A stretch of DNA of 64,000 bases, from assembly GCA_963791045.1 (NCBI GenBank), contig CAWBQK010000015.1, forward strand, positions 229,390-293,389, in the 5' to 3' direction. This DNA is from Candidatus Latescibacterota bacterium (lineage in GTDB: Bacteria; Krumholzibacteriota; Krumholzibacteriia; WVZY01). Under the pieces are notes generated by a model. It saw only the letters and a list, made by a program, of their open reading frames with translations, did no database searches and was not told the origin of the DNA. The translations under genes and the position numbers were made by a program. Positions 26,511-52,314 of this stretch are shown here, piece after piece. The stretch's first letter is position 1. The number at the start of each line of letters is the position of its first letter.

Positions 26511-26617
26511 AACGGTTTCCCTCCCTATGATTGTTACCGCTACAAATGACCCCGGCATTATACCAGAGGTCATCGTCGTTTGCCACACTTTCTCGCCGGA
26601 ACATCTCCCGGGCCAAA

Positions 26618-27889: not shown

Positions 27890-27900
27890 TCTTTGGTTCC

Positions 27901-28980: not shown

Positions 28981-28987
28981 TACCCCG

Positions 28988-29467: not shown

Positions 29468-29516
29468 TTGCGCCCGCGTATCTTAGCAAAGCGCAGGCGG
29501 CAAGATCAACACCCTT

Positions 29517-29534
29517 TTGTGCATGAAATCACAA
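29517..29534. promoter_or_regulatory. Rex/CRP-like palindrome upstream of the Rieske promoter
   Basis: TTGTGCA-TGAA-ATCACAA; a minus-strand extended -10 (TGCTAAGAT) lies at 29480-29488. Confidence 0.45.
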
Positions 29535-29563
29535 GGCCGCCGGAGATCTCTTCAACGGCGGCC
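29535..29563 (-). terminator. Hairpin after the second 19-heme gene
   Basis: GGCCGCCG...CGGCGGCC stem, weak U tract. Confidence 0.45.
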
Positions 29564-29577
29564 CCGTGAACGGCCTG

Positions 29578-32716: not shown

Positions 32717-33433
32717 TTAGTCCTGGTAAAGCGCCTTGACGGCACCCCACGTCGTCTCCTGAGTGGGGACGGTGCAGTTGCCGAGGACTCGCAGGGCGAT
32801 CTCGGTCACGCTTCCCCATCCACCGCGGGTCCTTGTTCCGGTGCCGCAGGCATCATCCATGAAGATTGGAAATTCGCCGGGCAACGGACCGACCAGGTCG
32901 GTGTCGCCGAAGAACGCTGTGTTGTTGATGGTGTATTCAAAACAGTCACCGAAATTGTCGAACTGACCTGTGGTGGTCACGTTCGACCGGATCCCAAGTA
33001 CGTCGCCGTTTACATATAGATAAGTAGTGGTAACCGTGAAGATGTCGATAACACCTGTATAGTCTTCGCTGCCGTCGCCCCAGGGGCCGTCCTTCGACAT
33101 CCAGAAGAGACCGCCGGTGTATTCGGTGCGGTAGGTGACCTCTCCGGTATTGTTCGAATCACGCGTGTCGGAAACGAGCGAAGGCGAAAAAGCGATCGAT
33201 GCGCAGTAGAGTTTCCATTCGGTCCCGAGTCCGAAGGCGGGATCATAGGACAGCGCGTTAATCGTGTTGCCGACCTGGCCGTGGCTTCCGGGATCGACCC
33301 AGGATTCGCTGAACCGGCCGGTGAGCATCTGGCCGCCCATATCGTCGGACAGATAGACGCCATTCTGCGGGGGGCCCGCCAGTGCGGGGACTGCGACCGC
33401 CATTATCGCAATAATCATTAAAAAAGCTTTCAT
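32717..33433 (-). CDS. Secreted hypothetical protein with a C-terminal TWGxxKALY motif
   Basis: Signal peptide MKAFLMIIAIMAVAVPALA; ends VPTQETTWGAVKALYQD; GAGGAG RBS. Confidence 0.85.
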   Translation of the reverse strand: MKAFLMIIAIMAVAVPALAGPPQNGVYLSDDMGGQMLTGRFSESWVDPGSHGQVGNTINALSYDPAFGLGTEWKLYCASIAFSPSLVSDTRDSNNTGEVTYRTEYTGGLFWMSKDGPWGDGSEDYTGVIDIFTVTTTYLYVNGDVLGIRSNVTTTGQFDNFGDCFEYTINNTAFFGDTDLVGPLPGEFPIFMDDACGTGTRTRGGWGSVTEIALRVLGNCTVPTQETTWGAVKALYQD

Positions 33434-33554
33434 TTGCAGATCTCCTCTTCCGTTTTGATGCTTGCCCTAAGGATGTTTTTTCTGAGTGTACGTGCTCGTT
33501 CTTGTCTTTTCGTGTGTGGAAATCTCATGCGATCTCCCTGATGTCATATGTTTA

Positions 33555-33580
33555 GAGACATGAAAACGGCGGGTGGTTCC
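33555..33580 (-). promoter_or_regulatory. ECF (sigmaE-type) promoter upstream of the TWGxxKALY gene
   Basis: Minus strand GGAAC-16 bp-GTCTC. Confidence 0.55.
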
Positions 33581-33706
33581 CGGAAAACTCTGAAAAAACC
33601 AGGCACAGCCAGCGATTTTCCAGGGAAAAAGGAAACGGTCTTCGCACAAGAACGCAACTCATTCCATATCAATTTGTTATGGATATTCGAAACAAGAGCC
33701 GGGGGA

Positions 33707-34507
33707 TCAAGAAGTCTTGAATTCGCTGAGGATCAGCTCGCGAGCCTTTTCCGGGAGGGATCCATCGGTCATTTCGCGGCATATGTTCAGACTAATATCG
33801 AGGCTGTCAAACATCGACCTGCACCGGTGGCAATCATGGTCTTCGGGGAGCTTGAACGGCCGGCCCTGGTCCAGCGCGTCCATTTTGGCTTTGAACATGA
33901 CCATACAGACATGGACGGTAAAATCGGGTGGTCCAATCTTCTTCTTTGGGAGACTCTTTTTGAGCTGTTTGGCGAGATGAAGTCTGCCGCGGTACACACG
34001 GGTTTTGACCGTTGCTTCCTTGATCCCAAGCATACCGGCGACCTCGGCCATAGAAAAGTCGCCCAAATCTTTTAACACCAACGCCATACGAAATGGGAGC
34101 GGCATCGTCGCCAGCGCCTCTTCGACGGCGCTCCCCGCCTCCTGGCGTAAAATGTTTTCGAGCGGGCAATCGTTCGGTGATGGCACATCGATGAATCCCT
34201 CTTCGTCCGAGGGCAGCAAGTCGTGAAAGGACTCGATATGAGACGGCGCGCCGGCACGCCTATGTTTGAGGCGCTTGCACGTCCTCGCGGCGATCGTAAA
34301 AAGCCAGGTCGACGGCGCGGAGAGCCCTTTGAATTGCCCCCAATTCTTGAAAGCGCGAAGAAAGGTCTCCTGGACGAGGTCTTCCGCATCCTCTCGGGTG
34401 CCGCATATACGAAGACCCAGACCATAGATACGGTCTCCGTAACTATCGAAGAGTTGAGGAATCGCCGTCTGGGCGGGTTCTTTTGCTGCGTCTGCAAAGC
34501 TGTCCAT
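33707..34507 (-). CDS. ECF sigma-70 factor with a Cys/His-rich C-terminal extension
   Basis: Region 2 DAEDLVQETFLRAF...STWLFTIA; region 4 AEVAGMLGIKEATVKTRVYRGR; tail HVC...HDCHRC...IC. Confidence 0.9.
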   Translation of the reverse strand: MDSFADAAKEPAQTAIPQLFDSYGDRIYGLGLRICGTREDAEDLVQETFLRAFKNWGQFKGLSAPSTWLFTIAARTCKRLKHRRAGAPSHIESFHDLLPSDEEGFIDVPSPNDCPLENILRQEAGSAVEEALATMPLPFRMALVLKDLGDFSMAEVAGMLGIKEATVKTRVYRGRLHLAKQLKKSLPKKKIGPPDFTVHVCMVMFKAKMDALDQGRPFKLPEDHDCHRCRSMFDSLDISLNICREMTDGSLPEKARELILSEFKTS

Positions 34508-37064: not shown

Positions 37065-38021
37065 ATGAAAACGAGAAACACGTTGTGGTTATTTGCGTTA
37101 GCTTGCCTTTTGGCCTCGGGAGCCTTCGCCGCAACCGCTCCGCCGGCGGCCATTCTGTTGGGCTGCCAGGGAGATGTCACTATCGTCAAAAGCGGCGGGG
37201 AGCAGGTAAAGGCCTCATTCGGGATGGCGCTCGATCCGGGCGACGAGGTTCGAACGGGCAAGGACGCGACGGCGGAGATACACTTCGACAACGGCCAATG
37301 GGTGCAGATCGGACCCAACAGCAGCACCCAGGTGCATGGATCGAAAGCCCAGGCGGCATCAAATGGCGTGTCGATGGGAGAGAAGAGCTTCGAGGTCGTT
37401 CAGAATTTCCTCAAGCTCAAGGACTCGGAAGGGACGAGTTCGCTGGCGAGACTCCGCTCGGGCGACAAGCACTCCGAACTTCGAGCCGAGTCACCCATGC
37501 AAACCAAGGTTATGGAGTCAGTGCCGACCTTCAAATGGACCGCGTCGGATCCATCCCAGGAACTCCTTCTCACGCTGTACAATGACGAGGGCGTGTTGTG
37601 GAAGCACGAGGTCGAAACGGGCACATCGAGTGTGACCTATCCTGGTGACGCCCCGGAGCTTTCTCCCGATGTCACTTATTCGTGGGTCCTCGAGACGACC
37701 GACCCGCTGGTCTTCCCCCCTCTTCGCAGCGAGGCCGCCTTCTTCGAGGTGCTTTCCGTAGAGGAGAAGAAGACCGTCGAATCATCGCTCGGTGAGATTG
37801 TTGCGGACGACAAGCCGAGTAAAATAACTTATCATCTGGTTCGAGCCAGTCTATTCTATGGCAATAATCTTATGGAGGATGCGATCGCCGAGATGAAAAT
37901 GGCGATTGAACTCGAACCGGACAACTCGGACCTTCACGCGATCCTCGCCCGCCTCTACGCCGAGACCGGGCGGACGCAGGACGCCGTCAAGGAGTACGAC
38001 CGGGTTCTTGAGGGGCGCTAG
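37065..38021 (+). CDS. Secreted FecR-like / DUF928-like / TPR protein
   Basis: Signal peptide; FecR-like GDEVRTGKDATAEIHFDNGQWVQIGPNS; PTFKW...YSW and RASLFYGNNLMEDAI resemble DUF928; C-terminal TPR; ATG 37065 with GAGGAG. Confidence 0.75.
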   Translation: MKTRNTLWLFALACLLASGAFAATAPPAAILLGCQGDVTIVKSGGEQVKASFGMALDPGDEVRTGKDATAEIHFDNGQWVQIGPNSSTQVHGSKAQAASNGVSMGEKSFEVVQNFLKLKDSEGTSSLARLRSGDKHSELRAESPMQTKVMESVPTFKWTASDPSQELLLTLYNDEGVLWKHEVETGTSSVTYPGDAPELSPDVTYSWVLETTDPLVFPPLRSEAAFFEVLSVEEKKTVESSLGEIVADDKPSKITYHLVRASLFYGNNLMEDAIAEMKMAIELEPDNSDLHAILARLYAETGRTQDAVKEYDRVLEGR

Positions 38022-38059
38022 TCTCGGATCTCGCGCCCTCGTCCTGAAGTTCCTGATCT

Positions 38060-39678
38060 ATGGAAAGAAAAACCATCGCGGGGTACACGATCGACTCAAC
38101 CCTTGGTGAAGGGGGGATGGGGGTCGTGTACCGCGCGGTGGACCCCACGCTCGACCGGCCCCTGGCGATCAAAGTCATCAAACGCAAGAATTTAAGCGCG
38201 ACGGCGAAGGAGAGATTTCTCCGAGAAGCCCGCGCGAGTTCCGCCTCAACCATCCAAATATTGTCACCGTCTACGCCGCCGGCGAAGAAGACGGCCATCC
38301 CTATCTCGCGATGGAATATGTCGAGGGGCGGACGCTCCGCGACGTCATAGACGAGGGTCCGATCGCGTGGGACCAGGCGACGCTTTGGATCGCCAACATT
38401 CTCGACGCGCTCGCAAGGCTCCACGAGAACGGGATCATCCACCGCGATCTCAAACCCGAAAACATAATGGTGACGGGCGACGGCGTGGTGAAATTGATGG
38501 ACTTCGGTATCGCGCACATGGCGGCGGGCGACACGTTGACCCAGGAAGGCACGACCCTCGGAACGGTTTACTATATGTCGCCCGAACAGGCGGCGGGCAA
38601 AAAGGCCGACGCGCGCAGCGACATCTTTTCGATCGCCGCGGTTCTCTACCAGATGCTCACCGCCGAGTTTCCCTTCGAGGGTGAACACCCCATGTCGGTG
38701 ATGTATTCGATCTCAAACGGATCGCCAAAACCGCTTTCCGAATATGAAATCGAATTCCCCGAAGGTCTGCAGGGTGTACTCGACACAGCGCTCGAGAAAA
38801 AGAAGGAAGACAGGTACGAGGATTCAGCGGGGTTCCGCGATGCCTTGATCTCGCTTCGCGAGATCGAACTCGGCACCGCCGCATATCCGGTCGTTCCCGT
38901 AAGCCGAAAAGCTCGGATCGCCCAGATCGGGATACCGGTGGCGGTCGTTGCCATCGCCGCGGTTCTGGTGGTGCTCTTCGGCCTTCGCGGGCGGGGCCCC
39001 AAGGTCAACCGGGATCTTGCCGTCCAGCACAACGAGCTCGGCCAAAGCGCTCAGGAAAAGGGCAACATCGACGGCGCCAAGGATCACTATCGCCAATCAA
39101 CTCTCGCCGACCCCACCTATAAGATACCGTGGAACAATCTTGGAATCATCGAGATGAGCGAAGGAAACCTCACCGAAGCCGACTCGCTTTTCCGCAGGGC
39201 CGTCGCAATCGACACGGCGTATTCGGCCGCGCTCTACAACCTGGCCACCGTTCGCTGGGACCTCCAGGACCTCGACGGAGCGGAGAATTATTACGGACTC
39301 TCCCTCGCCGCGGACTCATCGCTTCTCGGCGGTTACAACAACCTCGGCGCGCTCCTCCTCGAACTGGACCGTCCGGATGACGCGCGCGACGTACTGGACC
39401 GCGGGTTGTCTCGGTATCCGGATCAACCATACCTCATGAAAAACCGAGGCGTAGCCGCATTCGATCTCGGAGAGGATGAAAGCGCAATCGATTTCTGGAC
39501 ACGCGCCATCGAAAAAGACCCAGCCCTCATCGATGCCCACAAGCTTTCAGCCCAATGGTACGAACGCCATGGTGACACCGCGAAAGCAATCGATCACTGG
39601 AAGACGGTCGCCGAATCAACTTCCGGCGAAGAACGGCAGACCGCGGAAACGGCGTTGGAACGACTCGGGGCAAAATAA
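38060..39678 (+). CDS. Membrane Ser/Thr protein kinase with extracytoplasmic TPR repeats (one base missing near 38245)
   Basis: LGEGGMGVVY, AIKVI, ERFLREARA in ORF 38060; adding one C restores ALNHPNIVTVY and joins HRDLKPEN, DFG, GTVYYMSPEQ, a TM helix and TPRs. Confidence 0.88.
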
Positions 39679-39702
39679 TCCTGTAATTTCGCAACCAAAG
39701 GA

Positions 39703-40627
39703 TCAGAGATTGGACATTTTGGCGAGGACTGAGTCCGCGCGCGCAGCGAACGGCGTACCCACGTGTTGTTCTCTAACGTGAACGAGAATCTCACGGGCTT
39801 CTGCGGCATCGCCGCGATTTCCCAGAACGATAGCGAGGTTGATGCCGACGATGGGATCGTCGGGATTTTTTTCAAGCGCGACGCGGAGGAGCGACTCGGA
39901 ACGATCGGAGTCACGGTCGAGATAGGCGATGATTCCGTCTATCAGCATCAGGCGCAGGTCATCCGGGTGAGTTTGCCGAGCGCCGGCGCACACATCGCGC
40001 GCAGCATCAATCTGGCCGGTAGAAAGATAGCCGGCGGATAGCCAGTACGCCACGTCCGGGGAACTGGCGCCATCCCTGTATTCATCATAAAGATATTTGA
40101 GAGAGGTCTCCAGTTCGGCGTCGACGGGAACGAACCCCGACCGGTACACAGAACCTTTTCCATCGATTAGCCGTTCGCCTCCCGGCAGAACGATCGGCCC
40201 CCACATGGTCGCCGTTTCAACGGCTCCGCGGACGGGCGCAAGCATCGCCGCATCGAGTTGCCCCGCGGTAAAACGGTCAGAACTTCCGAACAAGTATCCG
40301 ACGACGAGAAGAACGATGGCCACGGCTGAAACGGCGAAGAGCCTGTTGGTCTTGCCACCCCACCGTCCAAAGAGGGAGGTGGAAACAGGCGGTGTCGTAA
40401 TCGGCCGTGATTGATGAGGAATTGGGAGCGGTTTTTTCTCCGCGGGTGCGGACCCAAAAAGCGCTCGGGAGTTCACCGTTTCGTAGTACATATCGAGGCA
40501 ACGATCACACACACGGAGATGCGCGAGGACACGCGCTCGATCGATTTCACCAAAACGGCCTTCGATCAGTCCGCCGATATCGCCCGCGGAAATGTGTGGA
40601 TTATCAGATCCGGAAATGATGACTCAC
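39703..40627 (-). CDS. zf-HC2 anti-sigma-like membrane protein with a C-terminal TPR (5' end appears frameshifted)
   Basis: Extending ORF 39703-40512 upstream in frame gives HISAGDIGGLIEG...VLAHLRVCDRC (HxxxCxxC); TM LFAVSAVAIVLLVVGYLF; TPRs; GTG 40627 is in frame if one T near 40614 is removed. Confidence 0.75.
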
Positions 40628-40857
40628 CCCCTAGACTTCGGATTGGGCCCGACTCGCCAGCGTCACGTACGATCGTCACCACCAGTTGTCAGGGTCAGCG
40701 AAGGCCCAAAAATCCTGTGTTCCAGCTGCACTCTAAGTATACCCCAAATGAAAATAGATTGGAATACCTAACTTTATCAACCGAAATTCGCCTCAGGGTC
40801 CGGTGGGGCTCGCCGTCATCGCGGGCGACTCGGAATTGACCGACCACCGCCCCCAAG

Positions 40858-40907
40858 AAAAAACACCCCGGCGGCGAGTGACACGGTGGGCCATTCAACC
40901 GCCGGGG
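40858..40907 (-). terminator. Terminator after the giant surface protein gene
   Basis: CCCCGGCGG...CCGCCGGGG stem followed by TGTTTTTT on the minus strand. Confidence 0.65.
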
Positions 40908-40962
40908 AATCTATTCAACTGACGTCCCTGCAAAGGCTCCTCCCGATCGGACCCACAGCAGG

Positions 40963-43900
40963 CTACTTTAGCATCAGCATTTTCTTCGTGCCGGTAAACT
41001 TCCCGGCCCTGATCTTGTAGAAGTACACGCCGCTCGAAACCGTCCGGCCGTTGGCGTCCCGGCCGTCCCATTCGACCTCGTAGTGATTCGCCTGTTTTTC
41101 CTCGTTTACAAGCGTGCGCACCTTGCGGCCCGTCACATCATAGATCGCAAGCAGAACGTGATCCGACTGCGGTAGCGTAAACCGTATCCGCGTGGTCGGG
41201 TTGAACGGGTTCGGAGAGTTCTGGTTGAGCGCGAAGCTAGCCGTGTAGGTTACCCTGAACGGCCCGAAGACCTGCTCGGTTCCGCGTTCGGACACTTCTT
41301 CGAGCTTGTAGAAGTACGTCTGATTCGGGCGAACGGTATCGTCCTTGAAATCGTACGACGAACCGCCCAAGCGACCCGCGGAACGAACAAGTTCGCTAGT
41401 GATTCGTTCGTACCCAACATACTCTTCTGTAGATCGGAGAAGATGGAACCCTTCGACTCCCTGCTCGAATATCGTGTGCCACTGGAGCATGACGCCCTTC
41501 GCTTCGACGACACCATCGAATCCGCCGAGCGTGACCGCGACGGGCCCGACAACGGTGAACACGTTTTGACTCATGCCCGAGCCAATGTCTTCGCCGTCGC
41601 GGAAGAGTGTCACCATGACCCGGCAGGACGCCGAAACATCACTCGGCGCCGTCCAATCGACTGCGCCGGTATTCGGGACCTGTTCCGCGATCGGGTACCA
41701 CTCTTCCCCATCGTTCGGCGACCAGTACACGTCGACGACATCCACCGACACGTTCTCAGGAGACGACCACGTCACGTTGACGAGCTGTTCGAGAACAACC
41801 GTTTCTCCGCCGGCCGGGAACATCATTGTCGGGCGCAGTGTCCGAATCGTATCCTGCCCCGCGAAGGGTCGGCCGTTCACTTCGCCATCGATATGGACGG
41901 GAACAAACTCACCCTGCGGTATGACCGCCTGGAATTCCGCACGGTCGAACTTTACAACAAGTTCTTCCAGGCCATTTGTGTCGGCATCCTCGATTGTCCA
42001 GTTGTCGGGGTCGGCGGCGACCGCGCTCTGAAGCATCACGGTGGTGGGATCGATGTCACGGGGATCGAATCCGGCGGGGAGTTCTATCCGGCCGGTAACA
42101 TACCGTCCCTTCGACTTGTGGTTGAGGGTTCTCGGTGTCACCTCGATGGTCGCGGCGACCGGCGTGTCGCTCCTCAATGGATCGATGATACTCACGGTGT
42201 TGTCCCCGGCATTCGAAATGGCAACCACACCGCTGCCGCGCGGATCGATCGCCACATGTGACGGATCTTCACCGGCGGCAATCGTACCGACGACGGTGAG
42301 CTGAATCCCGGTGGGCGGCAGCTCGACGCCGCTTTCACGCACACCGACAGAATTCAACACTTCGAGCGACAGAACCAGAATGGCATCGTTCTCTTCCTGT
42401 ACGAGATAGAGAAGCGCGCCGTCCGGCGAGATCGCTATGCTCTTTGTTGTCGTTCCGTTTCGCACCGATGAGACAACCTGATTCTCGGACGGGCTCCCCG
42501 GGACGATATCAAAGATTTCAAGATCGCCTTCGGTCGTGAGCACGACGAGAAACGCCCCGTCGGGTGTGATCGATACACTCTTTGACGACGATCCGTTCTT
42601 GGCGCTTGCCACGACGCCGAAGCTGATCGCGTCGAGCGCTTCCCAACCATCGTCCGTTCCAACATAGATAAGCGCGCCGTCCGGAGCGATTGACACGGTG
42701 CGCTTGCTCGTGCCACCCCTCACCGTCGACAGCACCTGGTCGTATGTCTCGCTCAAACCGTCCGTATCTATAATACTCAGGCTGTTCGACCCGCCGTTGA
42801 CAACGACAAGACGATCACCGTCCGGGTTAATTGCGAGATCGATCGGTGTCGTGCCAACGGCAATCGTTTCGACGACCTGGTGGTACGTCGGCGACAACGG
42901 GTCAATATCGATGACCGACACCGTCCCGCCACCGGAGTTGGCCACGTACGCACGCGTTCCCTCCGGGTTGACGACCACGGCGAGCGGTGTGTCGCCAACG
43001 GGAATGCTCGGCTGCGAGGACAAATCATTTATGTCTATAGGAATCACGACACCCGCCTCCGGGCTCACCGCGTAGGCGATGGCACCGTCGGGCGCGATGG
43101 TTATACTCCGCGTCGCCGAGCCCGTGCCCACGCGTGCGATAACCTCGTCATCAACCGTCGATTCTGTGGTGTTCAAAACTATGAAGCCGACGGCATTCGA
43201 CGTATCTGCCCCGACAACAACACGGACGTCACCCGTCGAAGCTCCGACCGGAACCGTCACGCTGAGAAAATCCTCGCCGGCGGCCGTGACGAACGCGGGC
43301 GTGCCGTTGAAGAGTACAGTGTTGAGCGATGGCAATGGATCGAACCCAATCCCCGAAAGCACGGCGGGAACCCCGGCAGTGCCGCTCGGCGGGCTTATCG
43401 AGTTGACCGACACACCAGCCGGCGCGGATGTCGAAAACACCGACGACACGGCGGTAAGAAGCGGGGCGGCCATCTCGTCGAGAATCCCGGTTGTCATTTC
43501 AATTGTGTACGAAGTGCTCGCATCGAGCACCGAAATCGGAGTCAGTGACACCTTTGTGTTGCCTTCCGCAAAACCGATAACGGCAGGAACCGGCACAAAG
43601 TCACCCTTGTGCAGGAAAAGCGTCGTCGAACTCACCGACAAGGGGTCGACCGCCTTCGAGAATGTCGTCTGCGTCGCCGTGGTTATGCTGATATCGGTCA
43701 TCACATCCGCCGGTGTAACATCGGCGACACTGAGCGGCAATAGCGCCGGATCGTCAACGCCGTCAGCGCTAAATTGAATCGGTGCGCCGCTGAGTCCATT
43801 CGCATTGACGACAACATTGTGGCTTCCCGGGCCGACGATCGACCCCAGCATCCACTGTGCTTCCGCGATGCCATCCGGACCCGTAACGACAGTCTGGGTT

Positions 43901-46900
43901 GGCGTTCCGGTTCCTGCAAAAACACCGCCGCCCGTCGTGACGCTGAAGTTCACGGGGACACCCTCCAGCGGGGCGCTGGCAGACGATGTAACCAGGACAC
44001 GGAGCGGCGATGACAACGGCTGGTTAATGATTCCAGCTTGCCCGTCACCCGACACGGAAGCGATCGACTGCGCCGACGTGAAATCGTAGATATAGACGGT
44101 GTCACGAAACGCCGACACGCTGTAGAAACGACTCGCGTCCGGCGAAAAATCGCTGTCCACCGTCGTCAGGTGGTGAAAGATATCTCCGGCCTGCTCGATA
44201 AGGACAAGTGAATCCGGACTCGTCTGCAACTCGTAGTTGAAAAACGCCGCCTCACGGATATTGAGAATCGCCCGGTCTCCGCGGGGAGACACGTCGACAT
44301 GTTCGTCGACCGGACCGGCCGTCGTTGCGTATGGTACAGCGTAACTCGCCGTCGGCGAGTCGGGCGTCGTGGTGTCGAGAATCACTGCCGTCCTGTTCGA
44401 CGGCCCCGCCGTTTGTGTCGTCAGAAGCAGACATCGCGACCCGTCCGGCGTGAACGAGATCGAGATCGGGATTTCGTCGGCGGGTCCGGTGTCGAGCAGA
44501 ACCGATCCGACGACGGCCCCATAGTTGACGCTTTCGGGTCGAACGTCGACGACGAGCACCGCTGCGGGATTGGCGTCCCGAACAGGAAGATACAGGTACT
44601 CGCCACCAGGGTGATACGCCATCTCGCTGACACTGCCGTCGGTCCCTGCTTCCCCGTAGAGCCCAACCGTGCTGAGGATCTGATACTCATCGGGAGATCC
44701 GTCTTCGATATCGAAGAAATAGATCACTCCGGCCCCATCGTCGGCAACCACACAGCGCGTGCCGTCAGGGCTGACCTGCACACCGCTGACATTCCCCTCG
44801 TAGTTTGAAATGTCGAGCGTGCCGAGAACGGCTCCAAAGTCGGGACTGTCCGGGTTGACATCGAGAACCTGGACGGCGCTCGAACCGAAATCGGCGACAA
44901 CCGCGCGACGTCCGCCCGGGGTGACGACGATGTCGTCTACCGATACAACAACGTCAACCGAGTCGATGAACTGATTGAATGTGGGGCTTCCCGGATCGCT
45001 GTCGAGGGCATACACGTTACCGTTGTCGCCACCGACGAGGACGAGTCTACCGTCGGGCGAAGCGGTCAACGTCGACGTGAGTTCGGGCGCGCCCAACGGG
45101 CGTGCCGAGAGGGCAAGCCTGAGATTGTCGGAAACGGTCGGACTCAACACTTCAAAGAAAATCGCATTGGAAACCAATGACGGGCCCACCGGATTTGTTC
45201 CGATAACCGAAAGCGGACCGCTCATCGCGCCGAACGGTACCGACACGGTCACGGAATTTGCCGTCCGGCGTTCGGGCACGGCCATTATGCCGTCGAACGA
45301 CACCGCAAGAAGAGAATCGGCGTCAAGACCCGTTCCCGCGATTACCACCCTGGCTCCGACGGGTCCGGCGATTCTCGAAAGCGTTTTCACAGTCGGACCC
45401 AGACCGATCGCCGTCACGGCAATATTCTGCTCGGCCTCGGAAATTGTATAAGCATAAAAACCGTCGGAGGAAATCGCGACATCGACGGGATTAATCCGCT
45501 GCGGTATTGTCGCGGCGACATTTCTGAACGTCGGGCTTCCCTCTCTGAGATCGATGACATCAAGCAAATTGAGCTCGCGATTGACCGTGTGGACGAATGA
45601 TCCGGCTGGTGTGATCGCGGCGCCGCGGAGTGTCCCGCCCGTTGGAATCGACTGGACAAAAAACAGTCCGGAGAGCGAGACGATTGAAACTTCACCAGCT
45701 TCATCTGTCACGTAGGCACGCTCGCCCATCGGGTCTACAACGACATCCCGCGGATCCGGCCCCACCGGAATTTCCGCGAGGAGTGAATCCGGACCGAGGT
45801 CAAATACAAGGAGGTTCCCGGTGCCGGCGAGAACGAGAAGATACTCGCCCGCCGGATCGGTCGCCATCTTGCCGCGCAGATTGAGATCGGGAGACACAAT
45901 GACGCCGACCTGGTTGTCAAATGTCGGGCTCGCCGGGTTGACATCCCATATCTGGATGTCCCCGTCACCGGTCGGAACAAACGCACGCTGTCCCGTCGGG
46001 TCGACAAGAATTCCTTTTGGCTCGGCGCCCACATCAACTTCGCTCAACACCACGGCCGAGGCGCCGGACGTATCGATCCTGTATAACTTCTGATTGATTC
46101 GACTCACGCCATAGACGCGCCCACCGTCCGGCGTCGCCGCCATCTCGTTCAGCCCGCCCGGGATTGAAATCGTCGTGACGTCGAGAAAACCAGGAGATCC
46201 AGGATCGACATCAACCTCGGCAACACCGGCATCCGTGGATACGAACGCGTGACTTCCATCGGGGAGAACTGACACGGCGCGAGGCACGGCGAAGAGATCA
46301 GCCACACCCACTTCGACGCCGCGAGGCACTTCTTCAGCAGACAAAACCGTAAATCCGGGATATGTCGCCATACCCGACGGCGTTTGCACGACGACGGGGC
46401 CTGTGGCGGCGCCGGCTGGAATGGTCACAACGATGCGCGATGGATCGGCGTCATCAACCGTCGCCGGCACACCGTCGAAGGTGACCTCGTTATCCGCGAT
46501 GTCCGCGTCAAAACCAAAACCATTTATGACAACCGTCGCTCCCTCGACACCTTTGCCGGGAACCATGGTCGAAACACCGACAGGGGGCTGCGCTTCGGTC
46601 TTGAAGAACATCTCGAAGGGAACGGCAAGGCCATTCCCCGCTTTGTCGGAAACCCCGGTTTCGAGCCTGAGTTTATAGGTTGTCGTAAACTCGAGACCAC
46701 CCGTCGGTATAAATGCGAGAAGCGAATCATCGTTGAGGATCGCTGCGTTGCCGCTTACAAAAGCACCGGTCGCCGAATCGGTAAGAGCAAAGTTGCCCGA
46801 GAGCGAATCCGATTCGATCGCCTCCGAAAAAGAAATCAGGATCGAACCGTTGTAGGGAACGTTTGTCGCGTTCGACGCGGGGAGTGTGGTCACCACCGTC

Positions 46901-48468
46901 GGAGGCGTGTTGTCGATATTGGTCGTAATATCCGCCGTGGTGGTCCCGCCCGACGCCACGCTCACCGCGTCCATTGCAGTGGGATCATCGGTGTTCGATT
47001 CTTCGAGATCCCAATATTCGGGACCAAAGTTGGTCTGGGCCGTCTCGTAGATCAGTGAGTTGATATTTGCCGGTTGAATATATCCGATCGGCGATGTCCC
47101 GTTGAGCGGATGAACGGCCACATAATAGTCGCCGTCGGGCAGACCGAGAAAAACATATCCCCCATCGGCCGGAGAGGTGTAATCACAACCGAGCGTATCG
47201 CCCGATGCCGAGTCGATAACAAACACGATGGCTCCGGCAACGGGTCCGCCGCCAAGACCATCCGTGACGGTACCGGCGAGCCGGCTTGCCGTCGCGAGAG
47301 TAGCCGCATCGGGGTACGACTTCAGCATCATCAGCTCGTCTTCAGTCTCGAGTGTTGAGGCTTCGGTCCCCTGCGCAAGCACGTAGAACATCGTCGATGA
47401 TAAAACGCTCGAATGCGAGATACCGATGAGGTGGCCCGCTTCGTGTGTCGCTACGCTCCGAAGATCGGTTCCCGAACCGTCGGTCGGAGTGGAAAACGAC
47501 TTCGTCGGGTTGAATATCATGTCGGCATCGACAATCTGTCCCGGTCGAACCAGCTCACCGTTGAAAAACGCCGCTTTGGTGAACGACGTACTGATTCCAA
47601 CGGCAATCACGCCGGCGGGAAATACAAAATCCGGATCGGTAAACGTTACCAGATTGATTCCGTCCAGGGCCTGGGCATCCTGCTGTGGCGTCGTACCCCC
47701 GAAGGCGAGCGACACTGCCGCACCGCTCACGGAGCCCCACGCATCCATTCCGGATTGGATCGCGCTGAAATCACTGCCATCAGAGATCCCCGGCGCGCCG
47801 TTTTCGTTGATCGTGTACGCGAGCGGAAAATCGAAGTCGTCCCAGTACTCTATGTGGCGGGCACTGGTGACAACGTCGATACAACCGTCGCCATCGGCAT
47901 CGCGGTTGGACGCATCCTCTTCGGGACAAAGATCGTCGGCGTCGGGAACTCCGTCACCGTCGGTATCCGTAACAACGTTCATCGGGGACGACTGGATATT
48001 GTCGAACTCGTTCGTCTCCGCAACATGCGCGTACACATCCGTGATCACGCCGAGATAGACGCTTCCCGTCGGGCCGGTCTCCGGTACGACGAGATCCGCC
48101 GGCAGAGTTATCGTAATTTCTTCGCCGGCTCCGAGGCTGTCCACCGGCGTCCCGATCAGTGATGTTATGCCGTCAGGATCTCCCGCCAGCGGCTCGTCTG
48201 CAGTCGTAATAATCGAGTCCGCGGAAATATAGAAACCGATGTAGAAGGGCGCCGTGATGGGCTCGCTCCCCGTGTTCCTTACCGTCGCTGACAGAACGGC
48301 GCCGATCGGCTGTCCGGTCAGGACATTTACCGGACCCTCTATCGATACGAGCTGCAGGTTTACATCGGCGCCGTGGGCTCCGGCAAACGAGAGCGTCATG
48401 ATCGACGTCACCACAAAAAGAAGAATCAGGTGGCGCGACGAATTGTTTTCAGAAAAAATGCGCTTCAT
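40963..48468 (-). CDS. 2501-aa secreted modular metalloprotease/surface protein (CARDB, TSP3, matrixin M10, Ig/IPT domains, three YVTN-like beta-propellers, FlgD-type C-terminal domain)
   Basis: Signal peptide; DTDGDGVPDADDLCP; zinc motif HEAGHLIGISH plus Met-turn STMFY; repeated xxPDG blades; LNQNSPNPFNPTTRIRF...SSGVYFYKI...KKMLMLK. Confidence 0.92.
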   Translation of the reverse strand: MKRIFSENNSSRHLILLFVVTSIMTLSFAGAHGADVNLQLVSIEGPVNVLTGQPIGAVLSATVRNTGSEPITAPFYIGFYISADSIITTADEPLAGDPDGITSLIGTPVDSLGAGEEITITLPADLVVPETGPTGSVYLGVITDVYAHVAETNEFDNIQSSPMNVVTDTDGDGVPDADDLCPEEDASNRDADGDGCIDVVTSARHIEYWDDFDFPLAYTINENGAPGISDGSDFSAIQSGMDAWGSVSGAAVSLAFGGTTPQQDAQALDGINLVTFTDPDFVFPAGVIAVGISTSFTKAAFFNGELVRPGQIVDADMIFNPTKSFSTPTDGSGTDLRSVATHEAGHLIGISHSSVLSSTMFYVLAQGTEASTLETEDELMMLKSYPDAATLATASRLAGTVTDGLGGGPVAGAIVFVIDSASGDTLGCDYTSPADGGYVFLGLPDGDYYVAVHPLNGTSPIGYIQPANINSLIYETAQTNFGPEYWDLEESNTDDPTAMDAVSVASGGTTTADITTNIDNTPPTVVTTLPASNATNVPYNGSILISFSEAIESDSLSGNFALTDSATGAFVSGNAAILNDDSLLAFIPTGGLEFTTTYKLRLETGVSDKAGNGLAVPFEMFFKTEAQPPVGVSTMVPGKGVEGATVVINGFGFDADIADNEVTFDGVPATVDDADPSRIVVTIPAGAATGPVVVQTPSGMATYPGFTVLSAEEVPRGVEVGVADLFAVPRAVSVLPDGSHAFVSTDAGVAEVDVDPGSPGFLDVTTISIPGGLNEMAATPDGGRVYGVSRINQKLYRIDTSGASAVVLSEVDVGAEPKGILVDPTGQRAFVPTGDGDIQIWDVNPASPTFDNQVGVIVSPDLNLRGKMATDPAGEYLLVLAGTGNLLVFDLGPDSLLAEIPVGPDPRDVVVDPMGERAYVTDEAGEVSIVSLSGLFFVQSIPTGGTLRGAAITPAGSFVHTVNRELNLLDVIDLREGSPTFRNVAATIPQRINPVDVAISSDGFYAYTISEAEQNIAVTAIGLGPTVKTLSRIAGPVGARVVIAGTGLDADSLLAVSFDGIMAVPERRTANSVTVSVPFGAMSGPLSVIGTNPVGPSLVSNAIFFEVLSPTVSDNLRLALSARPLGAPELTSTLTASPDGRLVLVGGDNGNVYALDSDPGSPTFNQFIDSVDVVVSVDDIVVTPGGRRAVVADFGSSAVQVLDVNPDSPDFGAVLGTLDISNYEGNVSGVQVSPDGTRCVVADDGAGVIYFFDIEDGSPDEYQILSTVGLYGEAGTDGSVSEMAYHPGGEYLYLPVRDANPAAVLVVDVRPESVNYGAVVGSVLLDTGPADEIPISISFTPDGSRCLLLTTQTAGPSNRTAVILDTTTPDSPTASYAVPYATTAGPVDEHVDVSPRGDRAILNIREAAFFNYELQTSPDSLVLIEQAGDIFHHLTTVDSDFSPDASRFYSVSAFRDTVYIYDFTSAQSIASVSGDGQAGIINQPLSSPLRVLVTSSASAPLEGVPVNFSVTTGGGVFAGTGTPTQTVVTGPDGIAEAQWMLGSIVGPGSHNVVVNANGLSGAPIQFSADGVDDPALLPLSVADVTPADVMTDISITTATQTTFSKAVDPLSVSSTTLFLHKGDFVPVPAVIGFAEGNTKVSLTPISVLDASTSYTIEMTTGILDEMAAPLLTAVSSVFSTSAPAGVSVNSISPPSGTAGVPAVLSGIGFDPLPSLNTVLFNGTPAFVTAAGEDFLSVTVPVGASTGDVRVVVGADTSNAVGFIVLNTTESTVDDEVIARVGTGSATRSITIAPDGAIAYAVSPEAGVVIPIDINDLSSQPSIPVGDTPLAVVVNPEGTRAYVANSGGGTVSVIDIDPLSPTYHQVVETIAVGTTPIDLAINPDGDRLVVVNGGSNSLSIIDTDGLSETYDQVLSTVRGGTSKRTVSIAPDGALIYVGTDDGWEALDAISFGVVASAKNGSSSKSVSITPDGAFLVVLTTEGDLEIFDIVPGSPSENQVVSSVRNGTTTKSIAISPDGALLYLVQEENDAILVLSLEVLNSVGVRESGVELPPTGIQLTVVGTIAAGEDPSHVAIDPRGSGVVAISNAGDNTVSIIDPLRSDTPVAATIEVTPRTLNHKSKGRYVTGRIELPAGFDPRDIDPTTVMLQSAVAADPDNWTIEDADTNGLEELVVKFDRAEFQAVIPQGEFVPVHIDGEVNGRPFAGQDTIRTLRPTMMFPAGGETVVLEQLVNVTWSSPENVSVDVVDVYWSPNDGEEWYPIAEQVPNTGAVDWTAPSDVSASCRVMVTLFRDGEDIGSGMSQNVFTVVGPVAVTLGGFDGVVEAKGVMLQWHTIFEQGVEGFHLLRSTEEYVGYERITSELVRSAGRLGGSSYDFKDDTVRPNQTYFYKLEEVSERGTEQVFGPFRVTYTASFALNQNSPNPFNPTTRIRFTLPQSDHVLLAIYDVTGRKVRTLVNEEKQANHYEVEWDGRDANGRTVSSGVYFYKIRAGKFTGTKKMLMLK

Positions 48469-48483
48469 AATAATCCTCCTTTT

Positions 48484-49042
48484 CTATCGGCGGCCCAGGG
48501 CCTGGTTGATGAATAGATCGAGCGGCATATCATCGACGCGCGATGAAGCGGCGGTGGGCTCGAGAGACATGGCTTCAACAAGTTCGGTCCCCACGAGTTC
48601 CGGCCGGTTAATGAAACGCTTCTCCCGTCCGCGTGTTTCTTTTTATATTGAATTTCCCCTGGGAAAATCCCGAGACCTGGAACGACCGGCCGTCCGGGGA
48701 TTCGAGAAAAAGGAGAACCTCTTCGCCGGTTCGCCACTCGAGAGCTCCGTGGACGGTGACTTTGACGTCGTCGACAACACCACCCATTTGCAGGAGGTCA
48801 ACCATCCCTGACCCGGAACCTTTGTAGGATTCGTCGACGGCAATTCGTGTCGTCGTATAAATCTTCGTGCGTTTGTCGTTCCAAAACGAACGAACATCGA
48901 CGACCTTACCGCGAACGACGAGCTCGGATTGTTCGCCCAGCTGCCGGGGGGTGAGCGACACAACCTGTGTCGCATCAACAATAGAAATCGAGCCCGCCAC
49001 AACGGAAAGGGCGACGGCTATTCCTGTCAAAATCAGCCTCAT
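48484..49042 (-). CDS. Small secreted protein upstream of the matrixin gene (one extra base near 48615)
   Basis: ATG 49042 with AGGAG RBS; signal peptide; LVVRGKVVDV...GEEVLLFL...QGKF; removing one T extends to ...FINQALGRR* at 48484, just before the next RBS. Confidence 0.75.
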
Positions 49043-49119
49043 TTGAGTTCTCCTTTGAACCAATTGGATCACTGTCCGGTCAATCAATTGAAAGCGGACT
49101 CGATTCCCGTCGCGGCGTT

Positions 49120-52100
49120 TCACCACGGAGAGCGGTCCGACCCGATAACAACAAAAGGGGACCAATAAAATGGGTGTGAAAATTCTTCGGTTTTCATCAG
49201 TGCGAGCCGCGCCTCGTTCAGCGCAACACCTGCGGGCATTTTCTCGCCGAGCATTTTCGAGTAGAAATCCTTCATAAGAATCGCCGTCGATTCGTCGGAT
49301 ACAGCCCACAGACTTGCGACCGTGCCGCCGGCGCCCGAAGCTATAAACGCGCGGCTTAAGCCCACGACGCCCTCGCCGCGGCTCACGCGCCCTTTGGCTG
49401 ACTCGCAAGCGGACAGGACAACCAGACCGGCGTCGACTCGCAATGAAAGAATCTCGAGCGTGTGGAGCAACCCATCCTCTCCCGCCGCCTCGTTTGCGGT
49501 GAGCGCCACACAGGACGCTGTGGGATCCAACGGGTCGATCAAACCGTGGGTGGCAAGATGGACAATCCTCGGGGACGACCTTCGAAGCTCCGTCTTGAAC
49601 AAATGCTCGTCCGCGTCCGCGCCAAGCGCGACGATCTTTTTGTCGTCACGAAGCATCCCGCTAATCTCCAAGACCTCGGTTCTCGTTGCCGGGAGCGGGG
49701 CGAGTGTGACCACCGACGATCCGCCTCCCGTTCCAAGCGACGAAAAGTCCGGGTCGCCGAGCGCAAAGAGATCCAGGTCGTACTGCGAGCCTTCTTCCGT
49801 GTTTCTCAATTTGAGGTATACCGTAGCCGACGGCGCGTAGACCGGCGAAAACGATCGCGCGAGAAACGGCAGATCTGCCCACGCATCGCGTTCGTCGAAA
49901 TCACTTGTGAGCAGTATCTCGAACGGCATTTCGAAGAGAAAACCGTCCGGAACAATAATAAGATTCTTGTTCTTGGAAATTCGCCCGGCCGCCGGCTCCA
50001 CGACGGCCTTGTAAAGTCCGCGCGCGGCGCCGCGGAGCGCCGCATCCGCCGCGCCGGGTCTGGATATCGCGTCCCGCAACCGTTCAACCTCGGGACGCAG
50101 CGTTTCACGGTCCGGTAGTTCGTGAAACTCATGGCCTTTGCGATCCACGACCCAAAGGAGAGACGCGGAATCGCCAAGCGCGTAAACGAGCATTGTCGTA
50201 TTTTTTGGAAGCCCCTGTTGAATCTCTTCGAGCGTGGGTATCCGTGAACCGGAGCGGAGCCCGCCCACCGATGCCGTGACACGCGCGTCTCTCAGTTCAA
50301 GGTATCGATCCGTAAGATTTTGTTTTTTCGTGCCGTATTCCGGCGCCGCGGGATCGAGTCGATAGAGCGAGTCGAGCACGGCGGATTCCATGGGAGATTC
50401 GTCGCCGGCAACCGACACCTCGATCATCTCGAGCAACCCCCTCGCCTTTGCGCGTTCAATCGTGCGGAACGCGAGGGCCGACCAGTCATCGTTGCGTCCG
50501 TCGCCGGACTGCGACGCGTAATACCGGGCAACTTCTTCGTAATAATGACGCCGGATACCACCCAGATAGCCTGTCCTGACTTCGGAACCACCGATTTCGG
50601 AACGGGTGTCGTCGAGAACCGACAGGGCGCGCTCGTAGTAGTACTTCGAGCTGTCCGGTCGATCCGACTCAAAGACGTGGCCCAACCCAAAATAGAGCCC
50701 GAGTTCAAGGTCGCCCTGACCGGATCGCTTGATATCCCCGCGAAGCGCGGCAAACCGGTCGTGGGCTTCGCCCGAACGCCCCGCAAGGGCAAGGGCGTTT
50801 GCATAGCCGAGACGATCGATAAGTATGTTGAGTTCGATTCCGGTCTGGTCGTCATACGCCAACGCGGATTCCCAGTCCGCAAGCGCCGCATCGTGTCTAC
50901 CCAGAAGCCGGTTGAGCTGGGCGGAAAGCACCGTCGACTCGCGGATCATCAGGGACTGATCGGTCTCCGCCGCCAGGGCGTGGGCCTTCTTCGCATATGA
51001 CAACGCGCGTTCATAATCGCCGAGCTCCTGGAGCAGATAACCCAGGTTGATCAACGCTTCGACCTGATAATGCGGAGTCTCGTGCTCCTGGCTCACCCTG
51101 AGAAAAAGGAGAAAGTGATCGCGAGCGAGATCGAGCTCACCGACACTGAGATAGACGACACCGCTGTTACGGTGAAAAACGATTGTCTGTTCGGGATCGG
51201 GGCTTTCCGCCAGCAGTCCCTGGACAATCCTCAGCTCGTGCAGCGCCTCTGTGAATTTGTATTCGGACGCGAGATTGAGCGCGAGATTGTTGCGGGTGAC
51301 CATTTGACCGACAACATCGCCGTCGGTCTCGGCAAGCCGGGTAGCGCGTCTGTAGGCTTCGTTGGCCGAACGAAGACGACCCATCTCTGAATTGAGATTG
51401 GCGATACTGTTGAGAAGCTGGAACTGTTGTGTGGCGTTACCCGCCGACTCCACGATGGGCAAAGCTTTTTCAAATGACTCACGCGCGTCGACCGGCCGAC
51501 CCAATTGGGTATAGGCGTTGCCGAGATAAGTGAGCGACGTCCCCAACCCGCCCCTGTCGCCCGTCTCTTCACGGACATTTACGGCTTCGAGATAAAACGA
51601 CACCGCTTGCTCGAGGTTGCCGGTTTGAAGATTTGCGCTTCCGAGACCGTTGAGGGTTTTGCCTTCGAGAATCCGGTCTTCGATTTCCCGCCTCGCGGCG
51701 AGGGCATTGTTGTAGTTTTCAAACACCCCGTCGAAATCGCCGGCGTACCACGAAACCACACCCAACGATCCCCACGTAACGGCGACGGACCGGTCGTCAC
51801 CGATCGATTCGTAAATGACTCTCGCCTCTTCGAAGAGTCCTGCGGCTTTTTCGAGATCCCCCGAATTGCGGCTCTCAAGAGCTTGCGCTTCCAGTTCGAC
51901 GGCACGCTTGCGTTCCGCCCGGTCGGCGGCCGACCAGTTCGAGTAGGTTTCGGTCAGCTCAAACGGCGCCCCGGACCCCGTCCTCTCGAGGTATACCCGG
52001 CTGACGCGCCCGGCAAACTCGATGTTTTCCTTTTCCGCGAGGAGATCTCCGGAATCTCCAACCTCAATCGCGATATCGAGAACCTGCCCCACCGCCGCGC

Positions 52101-52314
52101 CGACGATGATGGCATTTTCAGCGACAAAGGCCGAGAAGGCGCCCTCGTCGCCGGCCTGGGCGATCGAATCGGCCCGAACTATGAAGTCCATCACTGGGTC
52201 GGCCGTTGCCGCCGCCAGACAAGGCCAGGTAAGACACCCCATGACAAAGAGATACACGATACCGCCTGCGGGCAACGCGATATTGACCGGTCGTCTGACG
52301 TTCTGACGGCGCAT
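49120..52314 (-). CDS. TPR-CHAT (caspase/HetF-like) protease with an N-terminal export signal
   Basis: Hydrophobic N-terminus ending CLAAATA; many TPRs (LNGLG, LTYLG, LINLG); CHAT motifs IIVPDG, HLATHG, VVLSACES, ASLWAVSD, HPFYWSPF; ATG 52314 with GGAGG. Confidence 0.92.
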   Translation of the reverse strand: MRRQNVRRPVNIALPAGGIVYLFVMGCLTWPCLAAATADPVMDFIVRADSIAQAGDEGAFSAFVAENAIIVGAAVGQVLDIAIEVGDSGDLLAEKENIEFAGRVSRVYLERTGSGAPFELTETYSNWSAADRAERKRAVELEAQALESRNSGDLEKAAGLFEEARVIYESIGDDRSVAVTWGSLGVVSWYAGDFDGVFENYNNALAARREIEDRILEGKTLNGLGSANLQTGNLEQAVSFYLEAVNVREETGDRGGLGTSLTYLGNAYTQLGRPVDARESFEKALPIVESAGNATQQFQLLNSIANLNSEMGRLRSANEAYRRATRLAETDGDVVGQMVTRNNLALNLASEYKFTEALHELRIVQGLLAESPDPEQTIVFHRNSGVVYLSVGELDLARDHFLLFLRVSQEHETPHYQVEALINLGYLLQELGDYERALSYAKKAHALAAETDQSLMIRESTVLSAQLNRLLGRHDAALADWESALAYDDQTGIELNILIDRLGYANALALAGRSGEAHDRFAALRGDIKRSGQGDLELGLYFGLGHVFESDRPDSSKYYYERALSVLDDTRSEIGGSEVRTGYLGGIRRHYYEEVARYYASQSGDGRNDDWSALAFRTIERAKARGLLEMIEVSVAGDESPMESAVLDSLYRLDPAAPEYGTKKQNLTDRYLELRDARVTASVGGLRSGSRIPTLEEIQQGLPKNTTMLVYALGDSASLLWVVDRKGHEFHELPDRETLRPEVERLRDAISRPGAADAALRGAARGLYKAVVEPAAGRISKNKNLIIVPDGFLFEMPFEILLTSDFDERDAWADLPFLARSFSPVYAPSATVYLKLRNTEEGSQYDLDLFALGDPDFSSLGTGGGSSVVTLAPLPATRTEVLEISGMLRDDKKIVALGADADEHLFKTELRRSSPRIVHLATHGLIDPLDPTASCVALTANEAAGEDGLLHTLEILSLRVDAGLVVLSACESAKGRVSRGEGVVGLSRAFIASGAGGTVASLWAVSDESTAILMKDFYSKMLGEKMPAGVALNEARLALMKTEEFSHPFYWSPFVVIGSDRSPW

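Follow-up and report, generated by a model that had tools for sequence, protein, structure and literature searches.

What, if anything, do an exported TPR-CHAT protein, a membrane kinase and a giant matrixin do together? The question is raised by six genes in a row at positions 37065-52314 of a 64,000-nucleotide stretch of DNA (the window) from Candidatus Latescibacterota bacterium (GenBank assembly GCA_963791045.1, contig CAWBQK010000015.1; G000:C15:229390-293389, where G, C and L numbers are our handles for genomes, contigs and loci). The host genome, G000, comprises 3.66 Mb in 21 contigs and is 80.9% complete. An original prediction, made from the sequence alone, had described six adjoining genes in two convergent blocks, which the open reading frame (ORF) listing and Pfam both bear out, and its domain calls were correct for all six genes, with Pfam support for CHAT, Pkinase, Peptidase_M10, Por_Secre_tail and TPR (the last in four of the six products). 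Transmembrane (TM) helices and signal peptides were assigned by eye.

What that prediction passed over is the core of the locus, a small exported gene that constantly accompanies the matrixin. From gene content, conservation, predicted folds and export signals we arrive at an explanation to which we give about an even chance: the locus would encode a matrixin that is cargo of a type IX secretion system (T9SS) and a periplasmic inhibitor of TIMP fold, accompanied by TPR-CHAT and MtxA-like/kinase accessory modules.

A Small Exported Protein With a Predicted TIMP/NTR Fold

The small gene lies at 48484..49042 on the minus strand (family length ~185 aa), and its stop codon stands 15 nt ahead of the ATG of the giant matrixin gene, an arrangement that is translationally close. 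An AlphaFold2 (AF2) model of the product, built from 40 sequences, has a mean predicted confidence (pLDDT) of 83.7. Compared by VIA with 48,161 representative chains, the model found N-TIMP-3 (3cki_B) as its top match, with Z 10.5 and a root-mean-square deviation (rmsd) of 2.6 Å over 113 of 121 residues; model residues 26-186 align onto chain residues 1-118, and model residue 26 falls on chain residue 1. Ranks 2-13 are all NTR/TIMP modules with Z 7.4-9.2, generic OB folds reach at most 6.8, and TIMP-1 gives Z 8.0. Foldseek against the PDB placed agrin NtA, N-TIMP-1 and TIMP-2 on top (E 5e-4 to 1e-2, probability 1.0), and the language-model neighbours in the ESM Atlas that bear any Pfam family carry TIMP, NtA and NTR. 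By profile the small protein falls outside TIMP, and it has the fold of an NTR/OB N-domain on the predicted model.

The residue that is superimposed on the first residue of N-TIMP-3 is also the one that directly follows the predicted A-x-A signal-peptidase site. Among 134 aligned sequences (the query and 133 cluster representatives) this +1 residue of the mature protein is Thr 109 times, Ser 12 times and Ala 6 times, and Thr is invariant in the alignment of 40 closer sequences. The 193 close homologues are all unnamed and carry no Pfam domain; an exhaustive profile search gathers 13,533 clusters (50% identity) at E<=1e-3 and 5,149 at E<=1e-10. That search also yielded P0365 (679 aa, representative library), in which the small domain (residues 68-238) is fused to Peptidase_M10 (residues 378-468), a fusion that may be a gene-calling merge; a search aimed at longer fused forms found none, which is weak evidence. 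In one relative, a second, divergent gene of the small family (L020:9171-9611; G117:C43:9243-9521), ~31% identical, lies between the CHAT gene and the regular small gene.

A Giant Matrixin Predicted to Be Type IX Secretion Cargo

The giant gene (40963..48468, minus strand) encodes 2501 aa and, as the original prediction had it, a matrixin: Peptidase_M10 (PF00413) scores 36.1 bits against a cut-off of 24 (E 7.4e-9). The catalytic domain spans residues 196-400 (47269..47883, minus strand), with the zinc motif HEAGHLIGISH, of the form HExxHxxGxxH, at residue 342 and a Met-turn, so that profile and both motifs assign the protein to peptidase family M10. Its further parts are a signal peptide, CARDB, Big_5/TIG, YVTN/lactonase-type beta-propellers, FlgD_ig and Por_Secre_tail. 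Across 18 aligned matrixin domains His148, His152 and Met166 are invariant, Glu149 and His158 are present in at least 90%, and an invariant Cys stands at the start of the aligned domain. The giant orthologue at L017 has two matrixin domains (12960-13568 and 14337-14945), of which the first carries a degenerate zinc motif (THSAGHIAAIAN), the sole such among the 18, and is on its sequence probably inactive.

Residues 2419-2497 of the giant (40978..41214, minus strand) form a C-terminal sorting domain that exceeds its cut-offs in both TIGR04183 (36.3 bits against 23) and PF18962 (28.2 against 27), and the host genome encodes a PorU-type sortase (C7:200398-203730; 554.7 bits against 420). With a sorting domain above cut-off and a sortase in the genome, the giant qualifies as T9SS cargo. 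A home-made sorting-domain profile picks 93 of 3303 genes of the host genome as such cargo.

Conservation of the Locus in Relatives

Across 151 sampled genomes of the phylum, with CHAT orthologues called at E<=1e-60, the DUF928-like/TPR gene of the locus at E<=1e-20 and the small gene by profile, the small gene is present in 48, CHAT in 36 and DUF928-like/TPR in 32, and 30 genomes have all three. The small gene accompanies CHAT in 36 of 36 genomes and the DUF928-like gene in 31 of 32. By hand comparison of coordinate tables, from which these overlaps and all distances derive, CHAT and the small gene lie less than 1 kb apart in 24 of the 36 genomes and within 10 kb in 27; in the remaining nine the two are on separate contigs or, in one case, 170 kb apart. 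Where the DUF928-like and small genes share a contig (16 genomes) the distance between them is 2-35 kb without exception and falls at 8.6-12.6 kb in 11 cases, counts that come from related genomes which are not independent samples and in which giant repetitive genes break assemblies.

An alignment of three small proteins, searched against 185,579 species genomes, led to 15 loci. In 13 of these the gene after the small gene encodes a matrixin, and one contig ends too soon; CHAT stands directly upstream of the small gene in seven and downstream of the giant in one. In two metagenome-assembled genomes (MAGs) of Thermoanaerobaculia (Acidobacteriota) the small gene precedes matrixins of 259-330 aa in three of three pairs; Peptidase_M10 is the sole clear domain of these matrixins, and the pairs have no CHAT, propellers or T9SS domain.

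The kinase gene adjoins the DUF928-like gene in eight of the nine relatives' loci that were read. Order and strand vary: in G001-G003 the DUF928-like and kinase genes converge straight on the giant; G084 has small gene, giant, CHAT, DUF928-like gene and kinase on one strand; G023 has DUF928-like gene, kinase, small gene and giant, with CHAT divergent. In G023 an apparent 1204-aa "fusion" that lies upstream of the DUF928-like gene was set aside, as it has no Pfam family and most probably is an ORF antisense to the CHAT gene. The neighbourhood conservation expected by the original prediction thus holds across four families of the class for CHAT, giant matrixin, kinase-TPR and DUF928-like/TPR, and fails for the anti-sigma-TPR gene. 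On this comparison of sequences the neighbourhood is not a chance one.

The TPR-CHAT Protein

Upstream of the small gene, 49120..52314 (minus strand) encodes a TPR-CHAT protein of 1064 aa. Its CHAT domain (PF12770; 49138-50028, residues 763-1059) scores 212.9 bits against a cut-off of 24 (E 8.8e-63), and the motifs LATHG and LSACES, which we take to be the caspase-like His/Cys dyad from their placement in the CHAT family, can be read in the translation. Nine of nine printed orthologues begin with a signal-like segment followed by a conserved DP(V/I)xxFI, so the protein is predicted to be exported rather than cytoplasmic, as originally proposed. It has no sorting domain. A role for it as the T9SS sortase was considered and dropped, because a full PorU lies elsewhere in the genome.

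The host genome has eight CHAT matches, on C18, C15 (two), C4, C19 (two), C13 and C11. BLAST against all ORFs found two more triads of CHAT, small gene and giant matrixin (C18:68084-83176 and C4:48956-62203), three in total; on C18, the CHAT gene and a gene for a 1055-aa kinase-TPR protein are divergently oriented. A T9SS-cargo gene lies at most two genes away at six of the eight CHAT loci, compared with 9.8% of all genes, three of those six loci being paralogous copies. The cargos near CHAT genes are varied and include matrixin giants, SBBP propeller proteins and a CBM96/FG-GAP protein.

The MtxA-Like Protein and the Membrane Kinase

The plus-strand block begins with an exported protein of 318 aa (37065..38021), comprising a signal peptide, an N-terminal beta domain (DUF7354/FecR/retention-module-like), a DUF928-related Ig-like sandwich and 2.5 C-terminal TPRs. 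The FecR and DUF928 labels of the original prediction correspond to Pfam matches that stay under the curated cut-offs (DUF928, PF06051, 17.1 bits against 26; FecR, PF04773, 17.1 against 24), and the protein thus falls outside FecR by profile. Among 39 family members at E<=0.01, DUF928 matches 29 (best 5e-8), DUF7354 21 and FecR nine, and the N-terminal beta domain is matched better by DUF7354 and the retention module than by FecR (retention_LapA of NCBIfam, E 3.4e-9, under its cut-off).

Structure comparison points to MtxA. With an AF2 model of pLDDT 83.7, the MtxA C-terminal domain (4z29) is the best fold match, at a Foldseek E of 2.2e-8 that is far above the rest (TMt 0.68-0.72) and a VIA Z of 11.3 over 164 of 169 residues. 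In VIA, TPR matches dominate for the whole model and the N-terminal beta domain is barely probed; Foldseek places that domain on an adhesin "cell surface anchoring domain" (5ix9, TMt 0.80). No FecR structure is among the VIA or Foldseek matches listed for the model. With a predicted Ig-like and TPR fold, a signal peptide and the gene of a membrane signalling enzyme next to it at 38060, the protein can be called MtxA-like. BLAST against all ORFs found no second copy of this DUF928-like gene in the host genome.

That enzyme is a Hanks-type Ser/Thr kinase with one TM helix and a predicted periplasmic TPR domain (38060..39678, plus strand; Pkinase E 5.1e-41), in which the motifs GEGGMG, AIK, HRDLKPEN, DFG and SPE are present. 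The claim that the CHAT dyad and the kinase motifs are intact needs qualifying: all can be read, and the kinase is split over two frames near 38240. Similar pairings have been described: mtxA of Magnetospirillum precedes a CHASE2 adenylate-cyclase gene (PMC4439547), in Burkholderia the genes of exported FecR-domain proteins are followed by those of CHASE2 histidine kinases (PMC5192318) and a DUF928 gene occurs together with a CHASE2 sensor in Nostoc (PMC5587647). Because of these cases, an exported protein beside a membrane signalling enzyme is a known arrangement.

Other signalling genes lie near kinase genes of this kind. A 1512-aa TPR-GAF-sigma54-activator is encoded upstream of the DUF928-like/kinase pair in G041 (L047:2431-6966), and FHA-GAF-SpoIIE (PP2C) phosphatases stand beside the G023 locus (L050:4326-5909) and the host C18 kinases (L010:4919-6574). 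The sigma54-activator and the phosphatases are possible cytoplasmic signalling partners.

The Anti-Sigma-Like Gene and Separate Sigma/CHAT Triads

Between the kinase and the giant lies a zf-HC2-like/TM/TPR gene of uncertain start (39703..~40627, minus strand), which the original prediction had taken for an anti-sigma factor belonging to the system. An H-x3-C-x2-C motif is present; PF13490 (zf-HC2) reaches 16.7 bits against a cut-off of 22.2, so that this label too is sub-threshold, and, as had been noted, no cognate sigma gene stands beside it, the nearest being an extracytoplasmic function (ECF) sigma gene at 33707-34507. On both counts it falls short of a zf-HC2 anti-sigma factor. Nor is the gene kept at this site: none of the nine relatives read has a zf-HC2/TPR gene in the locus between kinase and giant. 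A terminator-like hairpin with a T-run 3' of the giant gene (40864..40880, minus strand) and a promoter-like site (40751-40780), both from a consensus scan only, suggest a separate transcription unit, and from its sequence context the gene appears to be a displaced copy.

The relatives of this gene pair with sigma genes of their own. Of 36 genomes of the order, 26 carry the family; in seven of seven loci fetched the relative is directly downstream of its own ~285-aa sigma-like gene, and a CHAT of another subfamily adjoins it in four of the seven. The sole paralogue found in the host genome by BLAST and Pfam (G000:C15:26949-27872, 307 aa) likewise stands beside a sigma-like gene and a TPR-CHAT gene, and a further zf-HC2 gene lies near the C13 CHAT. 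A separate conserved triad of an ECF-like sigma of ~285 aa, a zf-HC2/TM/TPR protein and a TPR-CHAT protein can thus be read at G000:C15:26949-32123 (L012) and at L055, L056, L057 and L061. It is a better candidate than the window locus for a proteolytic switch between CHAT and an anti-sigma factor.

The ECF gene at 33707-34507 was considered as partner of the orphan gene and rejected: it has its own downstream gene of 238 aa, and no link between the two was found. This minus-strand pair (32717-34507) consists of the ECF sigma gene followed by the 238-aa ORF, which has no Pfam or NCBIfam family and is possibly the anti-sigma factor of that ECF. The flanks of the locus otherwise look unrelated to it, encoding an amino-acid permease-Usp fusion, an ECF sigma, multihaem cytochromes, an O-methyltransferase and DsbD. 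The cytochrome c genes form a multihaem cluster at 20078-32259, with a cytochrome b/b6 gene at 27901-28980; two of them are fused to cytochrome b561-type membrane domains (21498-24377, plus strand; 29578-32259, minus strand).

Frame Breaks

Apparent 1-nt frame breaks affect three of the six genes. In the kinase, the N-lobe (GEGGMG...AIK) is read from ATG 38060 and the remainder in the 38110-39678 frame, so that Pkinase profile positions 1-51 and 54-252 fall in two frames and no single frame holds the catalytic domain. Its span of 1619 nt is 3n+2, and the gene is therefore one base short; an ~89% identical contig of a relative from a public sequencing run has an extra C behind 38240, and the orthologues of eight relatives are intact (500-553 aa). 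The small gene switches frame near 48610, at a site outside any homopolymer run, leaving the C-terminal 40-odd residues, which can be aligned to paralogues, in the other frame; with a span of 559 nt it carries one extra base. In the anti-sigma-like gene, a start at GTG 40627, which lies one base out of frame, would yield a protein of 307 aa, as long as the paralogue; no ATG, GTG or TTG lies in frame upstream of the H-x3-C-x2-C motif, and ATC/ATT near 40620 is an alternative start.

These breaks might be real mutations in a locus that is decaying here. Three of them within 15 kb, the non-homopolymer site in the small gene and the splitting of the paralogous C4 and C18 loci as well are in keeping with decay. 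The same assembly, however, splits genes that are presumed essential. Its nuoL (Proton_antipo_M/Proton_antipo_N; window 6537-8399, minus strand) is read as two ORFs, with profile positions ~63-165 missing between them, inside a complex I operon (3214-15397) that is otherwise intact, and a class-I aminoacyl-tRNA synthetase domain (G000:C2:94194-95168) is spread over three frames (open frames of 101, 283 and 272 aa) in a genome whose three other class-I synthetases are intact. Since these two are split too, assembly indels are, from sequence comparison, the likelier cause, and we regard decay as unlikely. In the public sequencing runs listed, shares of 0.16 or less were found, none in an RNA run, and the contigs that these runs gave for the organism itself do not span the three break sites.

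How Might the Locus Work?

In the explanation that we prefer, the small protein would probably keep the matrixin inactive in the periplasm, or shield the producer. Judging by its modelled likeness to TIMPs, its conserved and free N-terminal Thr might enter the zinc site in TIMP fashion; by analogy, the mechanism would be TIMP-like and the gene arrangement and purpose like those of the potempins, inhibitors encoded upstream of T9SS peptidases. The roles of the CHAT protein and the kinase are likewise inferred. Most plausibly, the periplasmic TPR-CHAT would process or activate by acting on inhibitor or cargo, and the MtxA-like protein and membrane kinase would form an envelope sensor that tunes the module by phosphorylation. 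Both accessory modules travel with the proposed protease-inhibitor pair in Latescibacterota/Krumholzibacteriia. A bolder extension, which we think doubtful, would make the whole large bacterial family the prokaryotic counterpart of TIMP/NTR proteins, blocking matrixins through the free N-terminal Thr; in Latescibacterota the pair would be part of an activation cascade in the style of matrix metalloproteinases (MMPs) and TIMPs, in which CHAT removes or processes inhibitor or cargo and an MtxA-like/Ser-Thr-kinase sensor sets the timing.

Several observations weigh against inhibition of a matrixin by a TIMP-fold partner within such a module. The small protein shows no sequence likeness to TIMP and no Pfam or NCBIfam match, and a profile search of its family against PDB sequences returned no TIMP at E<=10, with matches at chance level only. 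The mature protein, whose predicted N-terminus is Thr, contains no cysteine and so lacks both the disulfides and Cys1 of TIMPs. NTR/OB modules have roles other than inhibition, too. At L019 a 239-aa ORF without a family comes after the small gene; the small-giant-kinase loci of G041 and G140 have no adjacent CHAT; and in G140, G012 and G067 the copy of the small gene that CHAT flanks is not the one flanked by the kinase pair. The genomes compared all belong to one class, so the synteny may be partly inherited rather than selected, and with three of six genes frame-broken the locus may be non-functional as assembled.

In another view, small protein and matrixin alone are the functional unit, with CHAT and the MtxA-like/kinase pair nearby through shared descent in a single class. 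The Thermoanaerobaculia do have the pair by itself, CHAT is missing from some loci and stands elsewhere with another copy, and the host genome has ~20 kinase genes and eight CHAT matches. The adjacency nevertheless persists at 40-55% protein identity over four families despite rearrangements of order and strand, and 30 of 151 genomes have all three markers, compared with 48, 36 and 32 that have each singly; we consider a unit of two genes rather improbable. The original prediction had an exported TPR-CHAT sense a cue and cleave or bind the TPR domains of anti-sigma factor and kinase, freeing an ECF and altering phosphorylation, with the giant as cargo or substrate. CHAT, kinase-TPR and the DUF928-like gene are indeed conserved neighbours, CHAT abuts the DUF928-like/kinase pair in G084 and G034, and the separate sigma/zf-HC2-TPR/CHAT triad of the host genome and of four of the seven relatives' loci makes a CHAT-anti-sigma link plausible for that paralogous set. 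CHAT action on anti-sigma ectodomains fits that triad better than the window locus, where the anti-sigma-like gene has neither sigma partner nor canonical start, forms its own putative transcription unit and is absent at this place in nine relatives, and the proposal gives no account of the small gene, which is the most conserved partner. As an account of the window locus it is unlikely.

Finally, the giant might be an antagonistic or predatory T9SS effector directed against cells or matrices, with the small protein as immunity protein and CHAT as a marker of cargo loci. A small exported gene tightly coupled upstream of the giant, the multiplication of matrixin loci (three in the host genome, up to three elsewhere) and the excess of cargo genes near CHAT genes would suit this, but neither a target nor a toxin domain nor a polymorphic C-terminus was apparent, and we hold it very improbable. 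It differs from the preferred inhibitor-matrixin explanation in purpose only, because inhibition by the small protein is the same in both. If a TIMP-fold family is truly coupled to matrixins, it would let MMP/TIMP control be modelled in bacteria, would be a place to look for new MMP inhibitors and would make it easier to approach the giant surface proteases that uncultured sediment phyla export by T9SS. The locus also gives a testable set of partners for two orphan components, the exported TPR-CHAT proteases and the MtxA/DUF928 proteins.

Comparison With Known Systems

The animal TIMPs (MEROPS I35), which are treated as inhibitors found in animals only, resemble the small protein in predicted fold, export, a conserved first mature residue and a matrixin as genetic partner. 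Unlike them, it has Thr1 in place of Cys1, no disulfides and no C-terminal TIMP domain, and is bacterial. Another comparison is with AprI/Inh, periplasmic inhibitors that are encoded beside a secreted metzincin and place their N-terminus at its zinc site; these are eight-stranded barrels that act on serralysins of the type I secretion system (T1SS). Pfam Inh does not match the small protein. Serralysin inhibitors of this kind are mentioned in the paper on the Listeria metzincin pair discussed below (PMC8235301).

In the gene arrangement, the potempins are the nearer parallel. According to one paper, MMPs have no endogenous protein inhibitors other than TIMPs and karilysin is the only characterised non-mammalian matrixin; potempin genes sit upstream of T9SS peptidase genes, and one potempin is an OB-fold inhibitor of karilysin (PMC9890683). 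PotA and karilysin of Tannerella forsythia thus share with the window locus a small gene, of an inhibitor in the case of PotA, just upstream of a T9SS peptidase that is a matrixin; the OB-fold barrel of PotA has five strands, and the role ascribed to potempins is the protection of the producer's envelope (PMC9890683). Unlike the small protein, potempins are lipoproteins with a lipobox Cys, of 98-132 residues, and inhibit through inserted loops (PMC9890683), whereas the small protein has an A-x-A site followed by T, of signal-peptidase-I type, no Cys and ~160 mature residues. It therefore shares with potempins the position upstream of a T9SS peptidase and lacks their lipobox Cys, and no potempin was among the 50 matches listed for it in Foldseek or in VIA.

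A second bacterial precedent is the Mtz-Tim pair of Listeria, a metzincin gene beside the gene of a predicted TIMP-like protein, whose authors report finding no earlier bacterial TIMP-like record (PMC8235301). That partner differs in being encoded downstream and in being a lipoprotein cleaved by the protease, of phage origin and in a Gram-positive host (PMC8235301). Our literature searches, which excluded supplements, found no paper on a bacterial TIMP-like protein beyond the Listeria pair and none joining "CHAT domain" with T9SS terms, and yielded a single paper that mentions DUF928.

The accessory modules have parallels as well. Like the protein encoded at 37065..38021, MtxA (PDB 4Z29) is an exported Ig-like and TPR protein of ~315 aa encoded just before a membrane signalling enzyme (PMC4439547); the enzyme in the window is a Hanks kinase whose ectodomain carries TPRs, where the MtxA and FecR pairs have a CHASE2 cyclase or histidine kinase. 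The type III-E Craspase shares with these loci a TPR-CHAT protease, Csx29, and a sigma/anti-sigma theme that recurs in the paralogous triad. Csx29 is cytoplasmic, RNA-guided and CRISPR-linked and belongs to a system with Csx30 and RpoE; the window CHAT scores 21.2 bits against the Csx29 model NF041237 (cut-off 300) and, unlike Csx29, is predicted to be Sec-exported. None of the annotated genes of the window, in which CRISPR arrays were not searched for, is a cas gene. Because of the potempin and Listeria Mtz-Tim precedents, the logic of the locus is known in kind, and what appears to be undescribed is the small family, its TIMP-like N-terminus and its combination with an exported CHAT protein and an MtxA-like/kinase pair.

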